DNA of 64,000 nt from an uncultured Methanosarcinales archaeon (GTDB lineage Archaea; Nanobdellota; Nanobdellia; Woesearchaeales; GW2011-AR4): the NCBI GenBank assembly GCA_964585935.1, contig CAZPFO010000002.1, positions 7,465 through 71,464 of the forward strand, written 5' to 3'. Numbering within the stretch: the stretch's first letter is position 1; every line of letters starts with the position of its first letter. Under the pieces are notes generated by a model, which had not been told where the DNA came from, did not search any database, and saw nothing but the letters and a program-made list of their open reading frames with translations. The translations under genes were made by a program, and so were the position numbers. Of this stretch, positions 37,510-59,098 are shown piece by piece.

Positions 37510-37875
37510 GATTATCAATAATAAAAATAATCAAGATTTAATAAAATTATTAGTAAGAATTAAACAATAAATAAAAATTATCAATAAGAAATTATCACTA
37601 ATAAAAATAATCAATAAAAAACAAACCAATGAGTGCACAAACAGTGATTCCTTGGTTGTGAGTGTTTATGTGCGGTCGTTTTTTTATTTTAAAATCCTAA
37701 AAAATCAAAGATTTTTGGGACACCAAAAATTCTGAAGGAATTTTTTAGTGTTTTAAAACAATTGAAAAAATAAATAAAAAACGCTGCTGGAAAACGAGCA
37801 AATAATTGTGAATGTGGAACATGAATAATGATTAAATATTTAAATGATAGAAATTGATTAAAATACTGATTAAAA
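37510..37875 (+). repeat. structured intergenic element copy 1 (subtype A; core 37625-37832)
   Basis: ACCAATGAGTGCACAAACA...GTTGTGAG...GGTCGTTTTTT [nested-hairpin insert] AAAAAACG...CAAATAATTGTG..TGTGGAACAT...AATGAT. Confidence 0.85.
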
Positions 37876-37887
37876 AAGAGGTACAAA

Positions 37888-38370
37888 ATGGGCAATAGAA
37901 AAGCTCAGGCAGCGCTGGAATTTCTTACTACATACGGCTGGGCAATTCTGGTTATATTGATTACGATAAGCGCGCTTTATTACTTCGGAATCTTTGATTT
38001 TACCAAATATCTTCCTCAGGAATGTAATTTCCCGCCGCAATTCAAGTGTATTGACTTTAGCATGATAGATGAAGGAGGAACTCAGGAGATAAGATTCCTG
38101 CTTTTGAATAATATTGGGGAGGAGGTTTATGTAGAGGGATTCGATATAACGAATAATGCAGATCCGCCTCTGGAATGTACAGGGCCAACAAACACTCCTG
38201 AGTGGGTGAGTGGTGAAGAGAAGGATTTTGTATTTACCAACTGCCAATATGGAGTGTTTATAGAGGGAGAAAGAATTGAAGCCAAAATAAATTTTACATA
38301 CTATGCTCCTCTTACGCCTTCTCAACCAAGACATACTGTAAGAGGAAAAATAACAGGCACAGTAGGATGA
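37888..38370 (+). CDS. type IV pilin
   Basis: KAQAALEFLTTYGWA. Confidence 0.92.
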   Translation: MGNRKAQAALEFLTTYGWAILVILITISALYYFGIFDFTKYLPQECNFPPQFKCIDFSMIDEGGTQEIRFLLLNNIGEEVYVEGFDITNNADPPLECTGPTNTPEWVSGEEKDFVFTNCQYGVFIEGERIEAKINFTYYAPLTPSQPRHTVRGKITGTVG

Positions 38371-39819: not shown

Positions 39820-40160
39820 AAAATAAACAATTGAAAAAAAAGCCAATGATAAAAATCAATGAAAAATTCAATATTTAATAAAATTATCAATGAAAAAATA
39901 ACCAATAAGAAAAAAATTCAATAAAAAAATACCAATGAAAATTAAAAAAATAACCAAGGAGTGCACAAACACTGCTTCCTCAATGGTGAGCGTGTATCTG
40001 CAGTCATTTTTTAATTTTTGAAAATTTAAACAATTTAAAAATAAATAAAAAAACTCAGATGATGAAAGCGCAAACAATTGTGCATGTGGAACATAAATAA
40101 TGGCGGAAAATTTAAATGGTAAAAATTGATAATAAAAATTTAAAAAATTGATTAAAAAAT
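39820..40160 (+). repeat. structured intergenic element copy 2 (subtype A; core 39953-40104)
   Basis: ACCAAGGAGTGCACAAACACTGC...GCAGTCATTTTTT...AAAAAAACTCAGATGATGAAAGCGCAAACAATTGTGCATGTGGAACAT. Confidence 0.9.
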
Positions 40161-40187
40161 AATTTAAAATAAATATTGAGGTGAAAA

Positions 40188-41693
40188 ATGAATAAAACAA
40201 AAATAAAGAGAAGATATGGTAAAAAATGCATGGGTGTTTTAAATAAAAAAACTGCATTGAATTCTTTTTTTGCCTCATTTTTAAAGTTCAGCATAGCGGT
40301 AGCTCTGTTGTTTGTAATTGCCTTGTTTGTTACTGCAGGAGATGTTATAATCGAGAACGGCAAACTGAATGTAAACAACAGCTTTTATGTTGATGGTGAT
40401 GGGAATGTAGGGATTGGAACATCGCCGGGTTCAAAATTACATATAAGACAGAGTGTTGATAGTAATGTGGGTGGGTTTATGATACAAGATGTTGGTGGGG
40501 CTAATTTTAGGATTTGGAAAGATTCTGGAAACACTTATTTTTATAGAGGGCCAACACTTAATTTAATGACTTTTAATGATGCAACAGGTAATGTTGGCAT
40601 TGGGACGACGAGTCCTACTAAAAAATTACAGATTCAAGGCGGCAATGATAACGGTATTTTGATTACTGATGCAAGTGATAATAATAGGGTTATTTTAGCT
40701 CCTGATGGTGATGGTGATGGGGAAATTTCTTTGTATGATCAATCAACAGTATTAAAAGTATTAATTAGAGCTAGTGGAGATTCTTTTTTAGATGGGGGCA
40801 ACGTCGGAATTGGGACGGCGAGTCCTGGGGCACCCCTTCATATTAAAAGAGATAGTAGTTTGAGTGCCACGCAACATCTAATAATTTCAAATACAGATCC
40901 AACAAATGGCAATGCCGCATATATAAAGTTTCTTGGTTCAAGTGTGGTTAATTATGGTGATATAGGTACAGAATTTGTAGATCGCACAAGCGGTTCAGAG
41001 GACGGAAGTCTTATTTTTAGTACACGTGTTAATGGGGCGATGGCAGAGGGGATGCGAATTCATAACGGCAACGTCGGCATTGGGACGGCAAACCCTCAAG
41101 AAACGCTCCATGTTCGTGGCTGGATTATGACAGAGACAGCAGCCGCAAATCCGAGCGTGCATTTTAAAGACTCTACTTCTGGTCAAGTCTATACTCTACA
41201 GATAGACAGCAGCAACAATAATTTTCAGTTATATGACAATACTGCAGGCCAATCGCGTATTGTTGTAAAAACCGATGGCAATGTCGGCATCGGAACAACT
41301 AACCCAGATCATGACCTGGAGATTGGCACTGGAACCTATTCAGAGATTGACGCAGGTGAAGCACAATTCACCACAGGTTCGTCTAAAGAGTACAAAGAAA
41401 ACATTCGGCCGATAGCAGTACAAAAGATACTTGATAAAATCTCTACTATTCCTGTAACTACTTATGATTTCAGAGAAGAATATTGTGATAGTGCAGATGA
41501 TAAATGCAAAAATAAGCTGGGCCTGATAGCAGAAGATTTTCATGTGATCTTCAAAAGAGGTTCTGATAAGGAGATTAATGGACAAGAAGTGCAAATGGCT
41601 TTATGGCTTGCTGTTCAGGAGTTAACCAAAGAAAACCAACAACTAAAATCAATCATCTGCCTTGATTATAAAGATGCTGAGATTTGCACTTAA
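40188..41693 (+). CDS. tail-fibre-like adhesin with GNVGIGT repeats and C-terminal peptidase S74-like chaperone domain
   Basis: Five GNVGIGT repeats; SSKEYKENI...LGLIAEDF...AVQEL; N-terminal hydrophobic segment. Confidence 0.88.
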   Translation: MNKTKIKRRYGKKCMGVLNKKTALNSFFASFLKFSIAVALLFVIALFVTAGDVIIENGKLNVNNSFYVDGDGNVGIGTSPGSKLHIRQSVDSNVGGFMIQDVGGANFRIWKDSGNTYFYRGPTLNLMTFNDATGNVGIGTTSPTKKLQIQGGNDNGILITDASDNNRVILAPDGDGDGEISLYDQSTVLKVLIRASGDSFLDGGNVGIGTASPGAPLHIKRDSSLSATQHLIISNTDPTNGNAAYIKFLGSSVVNYGDIGTEFVDRTSGSEDGSLIFSTRVNGAMAEGMRIHNGNVGIGTANPQETLHVRGWIMTETAAANPSVHFKDSTSGQVYTLQIDSSNNNFQLYDNTAGQSRIVVKTDGNVGIGTTNPDHDLEIGTGTYSEIDAGEAQFTTGSSKEYKENIRPIAVQKILDKISTIPVTTYDFREEYCDSADDKCKNKLGLIAEDFHVIFKRGSDKEINGQEVQMALWLAVQELTKENQQLKSIICLDYKDAEICT

Positions 41694-45514: not shown

Positions 45515-46384
45515 TTATTTTAAATGTTCAGCAATCAAATCAGAAACGTCAATCTTAGATGTTCTGTTGGGTATTGTATTTGTGGTTATGACCCTGGCTC
45601 CTGCTTTTTCCAGTTTCTTTAGAGAGTCCTCGACCAGGATTCCATGGGCAGCAAAGCATGTCACTTTTTTGGCGCCTAATTTTCTCATTGCCTTTATTGC
45701 CCCGATTAAGGTGCGCCCTGTAGATATCATATCATCTATAAATATCAGGTTTTTAGAGCCTACATCAACTTTTTTATTTAGGGTTACTTTAACTTTTCTT
45801 GCAGAATACCTCTCTTTTTGCATTATCGCAAAATCACATCCGATTCTTTCAGCAACTCTTTGCGCCCATTTGTAGCTCTCCCAGTCAGGGCCTATTATTA
45901 TTGGACTTTTTATATTTTTTTTGATATATTCTGCAATTAAGGAGTTAGCGGTTAATTTATGCGCTTTTGTTTTGAATATATGGCTGAGTGTTTTTTCCCT
46001 ATGAAGATGAGGATCAATTATATATACTTCATCAAAGTCTTCGTCTATGTTTTTGGCAATTGTCCTAAGGCTTATACATTCGCCTGGATTAAATCTTTTA
46101 TCCTGCCTCATGTAAGGGAAGAATGGAGCAATTAAAATAACTTTTTTAGCCCCTAAATCAGCTGCTGTCTCTGCCGCAAATAATGTTTCAATTACACAAT
46201 CATTGACACTTTTGTAAAATGACTGTACCAGGACTACAACCTTTTTTTTTATGTTTATGTTAAACTTTAATTTTATCTCAGAGTCAGGGAAATGGGTAAC
46301 CTCCAGCCCAGAATAAGGTTTTTTTAGCTTACTTGCTATTTTTTTAGCCAAATGCTTTCCGTGCGAGCAGCCAATTATTATCAT
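45515..46384 (-). CDS. prs: ribose-phosphate pyrophosphokinase
   Basis: FPDSE, PYMRQDK, DPH, IDDMISTGRT. Confidence 0.96.
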   Translation of the reverse strand: MIIIGCSHGKHLAKKIASKLKKPYSGLEVTHFPDSEIKLKFNINIKKKVVVLVQSFYKSVNDCVIETLFAAETAADLGAKKVILIAPFFPYMRQDKRFNPGECISLRTIAKNIDEDFDEVYIIDPHLHREKTLSHIFKTKAHKLTANSLIAEYIKKNIKSPIIIGPDWESYKWAQRVAERIGCDFAIMQKERYSARKVKVTLNKKVDVGSKNLIFIDDMISTGRTLIGAIKAMRKLGAKKVTCFAAHGILVEDSLKKLEKAGARVITTNTIPNRTSKIDVSDLIAEHLK

Positions 46385-46394
46385 CTCAACCTCT

Positions 46395-46735
46395 TTATCA
46401 AATTTTTAATCAATTTTTAAATTTTTATTTATCAATCAATCATTATTTTTTAATCATTTTTAAAACAAAATAGGAAATTTTCTTGATTCTCAACGAGATT
46501 GAAAATTTCGTCTTCTTCTGCTCCTTTCACCAATGGTGTAAAGGAACCCAATCAGTTGATTTTCACCATTACGTTAAGTATAAAGTGAAAATCCTATTTA
46601 TTTTTTGTTGTAAACGTTATAGTTAACTAAGGTCAATGCAAAATTATTTACAACTAGTTGTGCAGTGTTTGTGTACTCATTGGTTATTTTTTTAATTTAT
46701 TTTAACATTGATTGATTTTTTATTGATTTTATTGT
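46395..46735 (-). repeat. structured intergenic element copy 5 (subtype B; core 46453-46684)
   Basis: Minus strand ACCAATGAGTACACAAACACTGCACAACTAGTTGT... plus multi-stem domain shared with copy 6. Confidence 0.85.
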
Positions 46736-47314
46736 TTATTTATTTAATGATTTTATAAACTTTTTCAAATCCTGGTTTAATTCTAGGGCTATTGATAATG
46801 AGCTTTGCTCTGCTGATTTTCTTGAGGAAGCGAAAGTTGCGATCAGAATATCCTTGTTTTTGAAATCATAGCGATGCTCCAGCTCTGAAAAGTCTTCCCT
46901 GCATTCAAAGTCAGGCATTTTGAGCTTTTGGTCAAAAACCAAAATCATAGCAGCTTCTGCGCCGTTCTTGATTGCTATGTCCCTCAGCTGAGTTGTTTTT
47001 TCTATCTTATCCTTGTTTTTTATGACTATTCCTTTGGCTTTCAGGTTTTTATGAGGTTTGTAGCTGATTTTATTTAACACTTCAATCTCTCTTTTTATAT
47101 TGCCTATTGCCTTTGTTCCTTTTTCACTCAAAGAATGGCCTTTTTTTGTTGATTCAATAAGGCTGTTGTCTTTCAAAATGTCCAGGATGGTCCTTATAGT
47201 GCCTTCTCCTAATTCCAATTTATCAACCAATTCAGCCCTGCTCGTGCTCTCACCTATATATAGGAAGCATCTTAAAATGTCAATATCTGTAAAATTAGCT
47301 ATGTTGCCTACCAT
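46736..47314 (-). CDS. winged-HTH protein (DUF4443-like)
   Basis: SRAELVDKLELGEGTIRTIL...GH.L; LRDIAIKNGA. Confidence 0.85.
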   Translation of the reverse strand: MVGNIANFTDIDILRCFLYIGESTSRAELVDKLELGEGTIRTILDILKDNSLIESTKKGHSLSEKGTKAIGNIKREIEVLNKISYKPHKNLKAKGIVIKNKDKIEKTTQLRDIAIKNGAEAAMILVFDQKLKMPDFECREDFSELEHRYDFKNKDILIATFASSRKSAEQSSLSIALELNQDLKKFIKSLNK

Positions 47315-50479: not shown

Positions 50480-50700
50480 AAATCAATAAAAAATTATCAA
50501 TAGTATAATTTATCATTAGGTGCACAAACACTGCACAATAAGTTGTGAGCGTGTATGTGCAGTCATTTTTTTATTTTAAATATTTAATAACAAATAAAAA
50601 AACTCAGATAATGAAAGCACAAATAATTGTGACTGTAGAACATAAACAATGATTAGAAATTCAAATGATAAATTAAAATAATAAAATTGATTAATAAATT
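50480..50700 (+). repeat. structured intergenic element copy 3 (subtype A; core 50512-50653)
   Basis: ATCATTAGGTGCACAAACACTGCACA...TGTGCAGTCATTTTTTT...AAAAAAACTCAGATAATGAAAGCACAAATAATTGTG...AATGAT. Confidence 0.9.
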
Positions 50701-53377: not shown

Positions 53378-53667
53378 AAAAATCAATCAATGTTAAAATA
53401 ATCAATAAAAAAAGAAATCAGGATAATCAATAAAAAACAAAAAAATTAACCAATGGGTGCACAAACACTGCTTCACTAGTTGTGAGCGCGGATATGCAGT
53501 CGTTTTTTGATTTAATTTTTTTAAAACAAATAAAAATCGATAAAAAACGCAGATGATGAAAGCGCAAATAATTGTGCGTGTGGAACATTACCATTGATTG
53601 GATAATTATTGATAAAAAATCTAATTTTATCCAAATATTTAAATAAAAATCCTGTTTCTGCTTTTTC
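53378..53667 (+). repeat. structured intergenic element copy 4 (subtype A; core 53449-53598)
   Basis: ACCAATGGGTGCACAAACACTGC...GCAGTCGTTTTTT...AAAAAACGCAGATGATGAAAGCGCAAATAATTGTGCGTGTGGAACATTACCATTG. Confidence 0.9.
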
Positions 53668-57305: not shown

Positions 57306-58016
57306 TTAGAATAATTCTGCCAAATCACTAAAATCCCCAATCTTCAAGTCTCCGTTCATCTTATAGCCTATGAAGAACATACCTGCGTTTTTTGCTGCTC
57401 CTTTGTCGTTTATTGTGTCTCCGACCAAGACTGCTTCCCGGGGCTCTATATTTAATCTTTTGCACGCCTCTAATAAAGAATCAGGCTGCGGTTTTCCTTG
57501 ATCTACTTCATTTCCTCCAATAATAGCGTTAAATAAGCTTTTTATCTTATGGTGCTCTAATATTTCGGATGTTGGTTTTTTGTAGCTGTTTGTCACTATG
57601 CCCAGTTTAATATTTTTCTTTTTTAACTTTTCCAGTGTTTCTTTAACATCCGGGTTTAATTTTGTATCTGCCTTAAACTTGCCCATGTTTGAATAGTAAT
57701 GTTTGCTTATTTCTTCTACTGTTTTTCCTTTAAAGTACTGCATGGCATCCTTTTTTATTGAGCCGCCCCATACTTTTTCCATGAATTCTTTTTTTGTTAT
57801 TTTTTGGAGCTTATAGTGCTGCCTTGTATTATTAAAAACATTTAACCATGCATCCAATGAATCAATTATAACCCCGTCTAAATCAAAGATGACTGCCTTT
57901 AATTTATTGGGCTTATGATGCCTCATCATTTTATTATAAGTCCACTGGCCTACGACTACCCAGTAAATTGCCAGGATTGCAGTTATTGACAAAACAAAAA
58001 GCAGAATATCATTCAT
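57306..58016 (-). CDS. HAD-family phosphatase with N-terminal hydrophobic helix
   Basis: IFDLDGVIID, GKPQPD, VGD..ND. Confidence 0.9.
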   Translation of the reverse strand: MNDILLFVLSITAILAIYWVVVGQWTYNKMMRHHKPNKLKAVIFDLDGVIIDSLDAWLNVFNNTRQHYKLQKITKKEFMEKVWGGSIKKDAMQYFKGKTVEEISKHYYSNMGKFKADTKLNPDVKETLEKLKKKNIKLGIVTNSYKKPTSEILEHHKIKSLFNAIIGGNEVDQGKPQPDSLLEACKRLNIEPREAVLVGDTINDKGAAKNAGMFFIGYKMNGDLKIGDFSDLAELF

Positions 58017-58609
58017 TTTTTACCTTTATAACGCCCTCTTTTTTCCACTTTCTCCAGTCTTTTTATTATTTCTTCTGAATTTGATGCTTTCTTTTTATAG
58101 CTTTGAAGGATATTTCTAAAAGAGTTCTCCCAGATTTTATAATGCTTGCTTTCCAGAGCTTCCTTTAATAGATGAAGATCAACTGCTTTGTCTTCTGTTT
58201 TATGGGAAAATGAGCTTAAGCCAAAATCAATAAAATAAATTTCTTTGTTCAATATCATATTTGAAGTCGTCAGGTCCCCATGAATGATGTTGTTGTTATG
58301 CAGGAGAGCAATCTTTTCTCCGATCTCTTTTGATAGGTTTTCAAGGTCTTTTTCCAATATATCTTTTATCAGCGGTCCGGGAATGTTCTCCATGGTTATT
58401 TTTTCTTTTTTGTCTGTTTTGATCAGTTCCGGGGAGGGGAAATTGATCAATGATAATTTTTCAAGTATTTTTGATTCCCGTTTTGTTCTTGATTTTCTCA
58501 GTCTTTCATCTATTTCTTTAATCCTGTATTTTTTTGGGAAACGGTCTTTGACTATTTCGTTATCTTTCAGAAATAATTTAGATTCTGCTCCTTGCGCTAT
58601 TAGTTTCAT
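58013..58609 (-). CDS. bud32: KEOPS complex kinase Bud32
   Basis: QGAE, RTKRE, HGDLTTSN, IDFGL, DKAVDL, RGRY. Confidence 0.97.
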   Translation of the reverse strand: MKLIAQGAESKLFLKDNEIVKDRFPKKYRIKEIDERLRKSRTKRESKILEKLSLINFPSPELIKTDKKEKITMENIPGPLIKDILEKDLENLSKEIGEKIALLHNNNIIHGDLTTSNMILNKEIYFIDFGLSSFSHKTEDKAVDLHLLKEALESKHYKIWENSFRNILQSYKKKASNSEEIIKRLEKVEKRGRYKGKK

Positions 58610-58611
58610 TT

Positions 58612-58955
58612 TTTATCATTAATTTTTGATCATTAGGGAATATTACACCCTCACAATTATTTGTGTATTTTCTTGTTAATTTTCTAAATTATATTATTTG
58701 TTTTGAAAATTTAAAATAAAAAGGAAAATTCCTTGTTTCCACACGTTATAGGAATTTTCAACTTCTTCTGTTGCATTAAAGTTCACATAAAACAATATCA
58801 CTGGCTGATTTTCGTAATTAGCTATGAAATAAAACGAAAATCCTATTTAATTTTTGTTGAATACCTGATAGTTAGCTTAAGGCAATACAAAACTAATTAC
58901 AACTAATTGTGTACTGTTTGTGCACCTAATGGTTTAATTTACTGATTAATTGAAT
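58612..58955 (-). repeat. structured intergenic element copy 6 (subtype B; core 58629-58933)
   Basis: Minus strand ACCATTAGGTGCACAAACAGTACACAATTAGTTGT...multi-stem domain...CACAAATAATTGTG...CCTAATGAT. Confidence 0.85.
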
Positions 58956-58960
58956 TTTAA

Positions 58961-59098
58961 TAGCCCTGCCAGGACTTTCGAGCCATAAATTGCTGCGCAA
59001 TTTAACAGCGTTCGAACCTGGGTCAAAAGGCCCAGAACCTCTTATGCCTAGTCTTCTTAAAGCGTTCTTCAAGAATTTGACCACTACACCACAGGGCT
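58961..59098 (-). tRNA. tRNA-Gln(CUG) with two non-canonical introns (59048-59076 at ~21/22; 58975-59010 at 59/60)
   Basis: A1-U72 acceptor AGCCCTG/CAGGGCT, anticodon arm AGAGG-TTCTGGG-CCTTT, T arm CCAGG-TTCGAA|T-CCTGG; spliced length 73 nt. Confidence 0.93.

Follow-up and report, generated by a model that had tools for sequence, protein, structure and literature searches.

The subtype B insert is probably a non-coding repeat unit of ~140 nt that represents a new MITE/REPIN-like family. Its best reading is a new structured miniature mobile repeat nested in a mosaic repeat (the host repeat, built of block 5 and block 3) that is promoter-proximal and orientation-locked. The B module is shown to be structured and repeated, and its distribution is patchy; it stands alone before genes, is truncated, or lies within the block 5/block 3 repeat. 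The window, meaning the whole 64-kb stretch of DNA that was analyzed (G000:C2:7465-71464), comes from the Woesearchaeota-like host genome G000 (1.16 Mb, 32 contigs, 35% G+C). Among the genes of the window are those for a proteasome subunit, aCPSF1/FttA, a RIO-type kinase and a DUF4443 protein, which mark it as archaeal by content. The nearest homologues of its Prs protein were records labelled Woesearchaeota, Nanoarchaeota or Nanoarchaeia, together with MAGs titled 'uncultured Methanosarcinales archaeon'.

Structure of the B module

Copies 5 and 6 of the repeat have a common layout, a 5' block followed by ~140 nt with three inverted repeats, and they form rows 1 and 2 of alignments A5 and A8. 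Copy 5 occupies a 351-nt spacer between the DUF4443 gene (46736-47314, minus strand) and prs. The sequence of both copies confirmed the strings quoted in the earlier note at their places on the minus strand. The features are as follows.

46620..46694, minus strand: block 5 of copy 5, B-subtype form; copy 5 has no block 3 (nhmmer C2:54158-54084, 56.3 bits)
46464..46603, minus strand: B module of copy 5, complete 140-nt unit (R1 covariance model 155.5 bits; G000:C2:53928-54067)
46594..46603, minus strand: P0 5' strand (AAATAAATAG), terminal inverted repeat and closing stem, paired with 46464-46473
46558..46593, minus strand: hairpin H1 (GATTTTCAC ... GTGAAAATC, with an inner UUAU/GUAA extension)
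46510..46557, minus strand: long hairpin H2, with basal P2a (46550-46557 with 46510-46517) and distal P2b (46522-46545)
46474..46509, minus strand: hairpin H3 (GAAATTTTC ... GAAAATTTC)
46464..46473, minus strand: P0 3' strand (CTATTTTGTT)
45515..46384, minus strand: prs, ribose-phosphate pyrophosphokinase (Pfam), the gene downstream of copy 5
58869..58943, minus strand: block 5 of copy 6 (nhmmer C2:66407-66333)
58714..58852, minus strand: B module of copy 6 (R1 131.6 bits)
58611..58687, minus strand: block 3 of copy 6 (nhmmer C2:66151-66075)
58013-58609: RIO-type kinase gene (Pfam RIO1), starting 2 nt past block 3 of copy 6

We compared the stems of the two copies. Hairpin 1 reads GATTTTCAC/GTGAAAATC in copy 5 and GATTTTCGT/ACGAAAATC in copy 6, and hairpin 3 reads GAAATTTTC/GAAAATTTC and GAAAATTCCT/AGGAATTTTC, respectively. 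Hairpin 2 pairs as GTTCCTTT/AAAGGAGC in copy 5 and has only ~4 weak pairs in copy 6. Over the nine full-length copies of G000, H1 was 97.4% paired with three pairs changed on both sides, H3 was 93.3% paired with two such pairs, and H2 was 74.4% paired with four. The covariation score of these nine copies was 0.204 as compared to 0.119 for shuffled alignments; none of 500 shuffles scored as high, and slid partners reached at most 0.093.

We then assembled a structure set of 24 copies, nine from G000, 12 from G191 and three from G025. G191 is marked unpublished, and the count was therefore repeated without its 12 rows on a public-only set of 34 distinct rows: those of G000 and G025 plus 22 from metagenomes (23 were added, one being a duplicate). 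Six of these metagenome rows have the same sequence as rows of G191. The copies of G025 and G191 brought out two further helices, P2a and P0. P0 is the closing stem of 7-11 bp, in which AAATAG pairs with its 3'-terminal counterpart. In P2a, the bases past hairpin 1 pair with the bases past GCAGAAG, which lies on the 3' side of H2, and they do so in many different complementary variants; P2a is degenerate in copy 5, with 3 of 5 pairs. The pairings held up in the further copies, as the five-helix structure (51 pairs) had 84.6% of its cells paired in the 24 copies as compared to 41-55% when slid. Its covariation score was 0.191 relative to 0.105 for shuffles (0/500 as high) and at most 0.073 for slides, and both sides had changed in 20 of the 51 pairs. 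By helix, the values were:

P0: 79.2% paired in the 24 copies, 5 of 10 pairs changed on both sides; 76.3% paired in the 34 public rows
H1: 92.9% paired, 4 of 13 pairs changed on both sides; 91.2% in the public rows
P2a: 72.0% paired, 5 of 8 pairs changed on both sides; 69.4% in the public rows
P2b: 78.8% paired, 4 of 10 pairs changed on both sides; 76.2% in the public rows
H3: 95.0% paired, 2 of 10 pairs changed on both sides; 95.9% in the public rows

The compensatory changes in the nine G000 copies, the 24 copies and the 34 public rows thus uphold the extra multi-stem junction that the earlier note had proposed. The gene-sense strand of the B module is predicted to fold into a four-way junction of P0, H1, H2 (P2a plus P2b) and H3, in which H1 and H3 are subterminal hairpins in mirror arrangement around the central H2. 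The three junction linkers described before as conserved fared unevenly. AATAGG was invariant in all nine G000 copies and GCAGAAG was kept in seven of nine, while TAACTAT was exact in only two of the six B copies that bear block 5. The single-stranded status of two of them did not stand: AAATAG is the 5' strand of P0 and covaries in other genomes, and the stretch beginning CAGAAG is partly the 3' strand of P2a, the basal helix under hairpin 2. Since AAATAG and the bases after CAGAAG are helix strands, the predicted junction is almost linker-free. We also reconsidered the idea that CAGAAGAAG echoes CAGATGATG of subtype A. In the element at C2:26-263, GCAGAAGCGGCTG lies inside the B module, and the block-3 stretch CTCTGCTGGAAAAC, the counterpart of CTCAGATGATGAAAGC, follows further downstream. 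As both stretches are present in one element, CAGAAGAAG and CAGATGATG are different parts and not homologues.

Thermodynamic folding gave a mixed picture. Relative to shuffled sequences, copy 5 had a z of -4.3 and the C18 copy a z of -3.2; copy 6 (z -1.4) did not beat its shuffles. The minimum-energy fold of the C18 copy was the four-way junction, that of copy 5 was an alternative long left-right hairpin (-38.9 kcal/mol), and one copy each of G191 and G025 (z -6.3 and -5.7) gave three separate hairpins without P0. The R1 covariance model had 12 forward matches in G000. It scored the forward strand at 117-155 bits, and the reverse strand of the B copies still scored 52-90 bits, the forward strand being ahead by 30-65 bits. 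The reverse-strand scores, together with the long left-right hairpin of copy 5, indicate that the unit is pseudo-palindromic. Its left and right units are inverted copies of each other that share their flanks on each strand but differ in their stems.

Copies and strand bias

A profile search with the insert located 13 B-module loci in G000. Nine were full length, one was cut after hairpin 2 (C6:40266), one was a stub (C12), and two (C24 and C8) retained hairpin 1 and part of hairpin 2. Five of the 13 had no recognisable block 5, and at C3:9330, C24:16272 and C8:43912 the module stands alone before genes with neither block 5 nor block 3. A G+C-rich RNA-like stretch (GCCGGGATGGCACAATTTGG...GGGTTCAAAAC...) was seen after the truncated module C6:40266, at L002 (G000:C6:39700-40500), and Rfam gave no match for it.

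Several of these observations bear on whether the B module might instead be a functional structured RNA, transcribed in the gene sense by upstream read-through or from a block 5 promoter, and acting in cis on termination, processing or stability or else as a small RNA, with its copies domesticated. The junction is kept by compensatory changes in at least three genomes, and this cross-genus maintenance is stronger than a decaying selfish repeat needs. On the sense strand, G.U pairs outnumbered A.C pairs by 64 to 30 overall (H1 26:1, P2b 21:10, P2a 12:12, P0 5:5, H3 0:2); this excess and the score lead of the forward strand would fit an RNA or some other one-strand function. A T-rich run follows H3. 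Moreover, 12 of the 13 G000 modules had a co-oriented gene next downstream (eight by the ORF heuristic described below and four read from the loci themselves, one being unclear), and the truncated copies C8, C24 and L088 of genome G001 retained H1 directly upstream of start codons. On the other hand, among 15 loci of G191 and G025 (12 of them from G191) the next downstream gene was co-oriented at nine and opposite at six, with both neighbours opposite at three. The strand calls in G191 hang on narrow margins, 10-23 bits in those three copies for which both strands were scored. A number of ~90-100 copies in one genome with absence from most relatives is unlike a conserved RNA gene, and Rfam had no match. 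In addition, a TTTAAAAA box and GAGGT lie between the B module of copy 5 and the prs ATG, so the module need not be in the prs leader. We consider a structured RNA of this kind unlikely.

Rfam searches returned no match at the gathering score in the 64-kb window, including none to riboswitches or to the group I/II intron domains suggested for comparison; around copy 5, a search at E<=10 gave only a chance-level CRISPR-DR match (E 7.4). The notion of a folded catalytic or protein-binding RNA thus found no backing; the module's copy number, patchy occurrence and pseudo-palindromic build speak for a mobile repeat.

The host repeat and its slot modules

We searched G000 with profiles of the host repeat and obtained 39 block-5 and 43 block-3 copies, which make up 48 elements. 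A spacer of 18-34 nt rich in A/T separates the blocks in 27 of them (A-type), an 83-87-nt hairpin insert in four (D-type), and 182-199 nt in three; five elements have block 5 only and nine block 3 only. The order is block 5 with a T-run, an A/T-rich slot, block 3, TGATWAAAA arrays and the start codon. The window has these examples:

37615..37852, plus strand: D-type element (block 5, 86-nt hairpin insert, block 3)
39943..40124, plus strand: A-type element (block 5, ~31-nt A/T spacer, block 3)
50502..50672, plus strand: A-type element, upstream of the aCPSF1/FttA gene
53438..53617, plus strand: A-type element, upstream of the methionine aminopeptidase gene

Gene orientation was taken from our own ORF heuristic, with no gene finder. 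By this measure 43 of the 47 elements with a downstream neighbour were co-oriented with it and none was opposite to both neighbours. Two of the four exceptions dissolved on inspection (a 46-aa zinc-ribbon ORF lies directly downstream of one, and the other involved a spurious overlapping ORF), which brings the count to 45/47; the host repeat is thus orientation-locked to the downstream gene. The genes behind the elements are unrelated housekeeping genes, with aCPSF1, MetAP and prs identified by Pfam. Others, which we take from their N-terminal sequences to be aIF2-gamma, RFC, S19e, Pth2 and APRT, are led by elements as well. Tiny host-dependent archaea are usually called streamlined; here ~50 copies of a mosaic repeat front housekeeping genes (presumably including aIF2-gamma, RFC and S19e besides aCPSF1 and prs), and for annotation these elements account for many long 'empty' spacers.

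We compared the upstream regions of 37 element-bearing genes with those of 638 other genes preceded by a gap of 60 nt or more. The canonical TATA motif TTTAWAWA at -45..-20 was depleted in element-bearing genes (4/37 as compared to 194/638), and TGAT[ATG][AG]AA at -50..-8 was found in 18/37 as compared to 24/638. Arrays of the latter motif span the region from block 3 to the start codon, for example at 46385-46460 (minus strand) and 40125-40187 (plus strand) of the window. The host repeat probably brings a promoter-like region with it, and a terminator-like signal is probably supplied by the T-run that follows block 5. The TATA depletion raises the testable idea that the repeats deliver promoters.

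These data also touch on a reading in which proteins bind the conserved pieces as double-stranded DNA, be they operator arrays or sites for nucleoid proteins, and in which the potential to form hairpins merely comes along with the dyad symmetry. Blocks 5 and 3 have invariant CACAA...TTGTG dyads, the A-type consensus showed no RNA fold (-2.2 kcal/mol, 0 compensatory pairs), and the TGAT[ATG][AG]AA enrichment is in line with such sites. However, the B stems vary and still pair, and sequence-specific duplex sites behave otherwise. Protein-binding sites would fit the host repeat better than the B module, and for the latter we find this explanation barely credible.

The slots hold at least three kinds of hairpin modules, B, C and D. 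In the C module, G+C-rich hairpins on both the left and the right are combined with a TTCTTTAG tail, as at the right ends of the IS200-type tnpA genes of G000 (L031, L032), and from its sequence it is clearly recognisable as a miniature IS200/IS605 derivative; like hairpins at both ends, a single orientation and the lack of an inverted repeat are features of such derivatives. It was found at L005 (G000:C22:16800-17500), at L006 (C17 end) and upstream of G000:C11:4274, and it also occurs free-standing. The D insert of ~85 nt (AAAAATCAAAGATTTTTGG...) lies between blocks 5 and 3 and is common to G000 and the same-genus genome (window 37615-37852 on the plus strand, L007, L008 and L009; L074, L075 and L073 in G001), and it is a third conserved slot module.

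Three other assignments for the repeat were tried and dropped. Short ORFs, one in block 5 (ATG AGT GCA CAA...) and one in block 3 (ATGATGAAAGCG...), do not keep their ATG among copies. A C/D-box sRNA suggested by AGATGATGA has no D box, and its would-be guide is common to the copies. An integron attC site, suggested by CACAAC/GTTGTG, was rejected as the elements are dispersed singly before housekeeping genes.

Distribution and turnover

With the R1 model, the B module was detected in 4 of 61 sampled genomes of the family and 3 of 151 sampled genomes of the order. The other 60 family genomes gave weak or diverged matches in G001 (3), G049 (6) and G023 (2), and the other 150 genomes of the order gave matches only in G025 (5) and in G191, which belongs to a different family (21 scored). 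G025 and G191 have full 140-nt units at 80-118 bits, as compared to at most 48 bits in the same-genus genome. In public metagenomes, ~27 further distinct contigs carry the module (58-118 bits), and three more contigs score exactly as G000 copies. Viral contigs were also screened: 42 loci fitted the H3 pattern, scored at most 29 bits with the model and were treated as unrelated hairpins.

Searches of G191 for the end motifs gave 99 left-end and 89 right-end matches, relative to 1-2 in the reversed control, which corresponds to ~90-100 B copies; this copy number, like the first sight of P2a and the 12 orientation loci above, comes from G191. In a relative, one structured module makes up ~1% of the genome. 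Left-end units also occur in tandem ~66 nt apart, and left-to-right end spacings of ~100, 115, 155 and 180-200 nt reflect variable interiors. In genus g12 the order is a block-5-like stretch, the B module, a block-3-like stretch, ~50 nt and the ATG, and the terminal inverted repeat is TAATAATAGG/CCTATTATTA.

Orthologous spacers differ in what they hold. Among 14 G001 elements whose downstream gene is orthologous in G000, only four also have an element in G000. The prs spacer has B in G000 and an A-type element in G001; the orthologue of C3:9278 has D with block 3 in G001, and G000 has B alone; C11:4274 has a stand-alone C module in G000 and an A-type element in G001. One G001 element sits between two genes that overlap in G000. 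Where A-type copies are themselves orthologous (L058 and G000:C17:8243-8425), each resembles the consensus of its own genome, and CTCAAATGATGAAAGCGC is present only in G000; this resemblance may be due either to concerted evolution or to replacement. The earlier note had suggested that subtype A may be a reduced derivative of B. Since B occurs without block 5 and block 3, is found in a genome of another family, and is swapped with A or D at orthologous spacers, B instead behaves as a separate insertable module.

We favour the mobile-repeat reading because of the patchiness, the copy numbers, the inverted ends, the variable interiors, the differing contexts and the turnover at orthologous sites. 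The B module would spread as DNA, with its inverted ends and subterminal hairpins serving as recognition structures for an enzyme acting in trans, and hairpins formed in a single-stranded or cruciform intermediate may select for the compensatory changes. Against mobility, no target-site duplication or empty site was established for B (the flanks are A/T-rich and themselves inverted, and the sole candidate is a possible ATTAA at the host repeat in G001), and no autonomous parent was found.

A different synthesis would make the four-way-junction module a transcribed, strand-specific RNA device that Woesearchaeota-type archaea acquired horizontally and kept near gene starts, either as a portable terminator, processing or stability element or as the scaffold RNA of an unrecognised RNA-dependent mobile system; block 5, block 3 and the TGATWAAAA arrays would then be a portable non-canonical promoter replacing the TATA box. 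We regard this combination as quite unlikely.

Partner enzymes and known elements

We looked for enzymes that could move the B module and for an ORF-bearing autonomous parent of the repeat, and no such parent was found. For TnpB, PF07282 gave 21.6 bits, below the cut-off, and PF01385 had no match in five genomes; IS110 (PF01548) matched only in G001. A kinship with IS-associated RNAs therefore gained nothing, as TnpB omega-RNAs and IS110 bridge RNAs come with a cognate nuclease or recombinase and the B module has neither a cognate TnpB nuclease nor a shared IS110 recombinase partner. DDE_Tnp_1 was present in G001, G049, G191 and G025 and had no match in G000. The B module has several features of MITEs, namely short non-coding dispersed copies (140 nt), terminal inverted repeats and presence/absence differences between related genomes; it departs from them in that an autonomous relative with the same ends was not seen, the DDE_Tnp_1 loci of the four B-bearing genomes being without B end motifs (gene surroundings were read for the G191 locus). 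A noisy scan for kb-scale end pairs in G000 showed none.

Y1_Tnp matches were found in G000 (3), G001 (4), G023 (4) and G025 (1), which brings up a REPIN-like doublet, that is, a pair of hairpin units in inverted orientation that an HUH/Y1 transposase (RAYT or IS200-type) encoded elsewhere would mobilise as single-stranded DNA. The inverted left and right units, with shared flanks and dissimilar stems, agree with this, and so does the IS200/IS605 derivation of the C module in the same slots. For 256 Nanobdellota proteomes, a preprint reports a RAYT orthologue group to be the sole transposase orthologue that gave strict hits (10.64898/2026.05.13.725050). However, the hairpins flanking the Y1 genes are G+C-rich, matching the C module and unlike H1 or H3, the copy-richest genome G191 (92% completeness) and G049 (67% completeness) had no Y1 match, and no conserved 5' tetranucleotide was identified for B. 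We judge Y1-driven movement of B to be very improbable.

Among known repeats, REP/BIME and REPIN-RAYT systems resemble B in having inverted doublets of hairpin units and mosaic arrays with other motifs. They differ in that no Y1 gene is flanked by B hairpins, the richest genome has no Y1, and B is larger with a central third hairpin. IS200/IS605 miniatures (PATEs) have two like hairpins and one orientation, as does the C module, whereas B carries an inverted repeat at its termini and its subterminal hairpins, H1 and H3, are unlike each other. ERIC/IRU and BOX are short non-coding imperfect intergenic palindromes with strong hairpins and a modular build (boxA-boxB-boxC, or internal inserts in ERIC), and copies with and without the internal module coexist. 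B is likewise short, non-coding, intergenic and modular, but ERIC/IRU and BOX fold as one long hairpin, while B is archaeal, forms a predicted four-way junction and has no known sequence relation to them; the host repeat, in addition, is locked to the downstream gene. In Neisseria, the inverted-repeat elements Correia/NEMIS are found in large numbers between genes; they can be co-transcribed and may carry promoter parts. They have a TA duplication and long inverted repeats, while the inverted repeat of B is 7-11 nt and no duplication was established.

A full-text literature search yielded no description of the B-module family. Dense MITE loads in a Woesearchaea lineage are already on record, with one genome at 105 MITEs per Mb among the MITE-densest archaea (PMC11602168). 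The portion of that census compared here gives counts only, with no family, structure or context, and its supplementary tables may list the B family. A covariation-backed four-way junction with no known partner enzyme offers a handle on DNA movement in DPANN archaea.

Genes around the elements

The Prs protein downstream of copy 5 (45515-46384, minus strand) had 66% identity to that of the same-genus genome, yet 73-81% to other MAG lineages, and these lineages have ordinary TTTATA promoters upstream of prs. Gene transfer or uneven rates are possible explanations for the identity pattern. The models built here found no element in the upstream regions of 52 related prs loci, and at the 11 loci whose Prs is closest (identity 73-81%; 15 of the upstream regions read), this place mostly holds a TTTATA-type box.

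Directly upstream of copy 6, a G+C-richer stretch (58958-59098, minus strand) starts with GCCCTGTGGTGTAGTGGTC, includes GGTTCGAA and ends with CCTGGCAGGGCTA. It resembles a tRNA gene that introns have interrupted; neither ARAGORN, which called no tRNA in the window, nor Rfam matched this stretch. Two more genes of the window lie behind elements. The product of the gene at 40188-41693 (plus strand) is 501 aa long and contains a Peptidase_S74 (endosialidase chaperone) domain, and the product of the gene at 37888-38370 (plus strand) has a pilin-like N-terminus, QAALEFLTTYGW.
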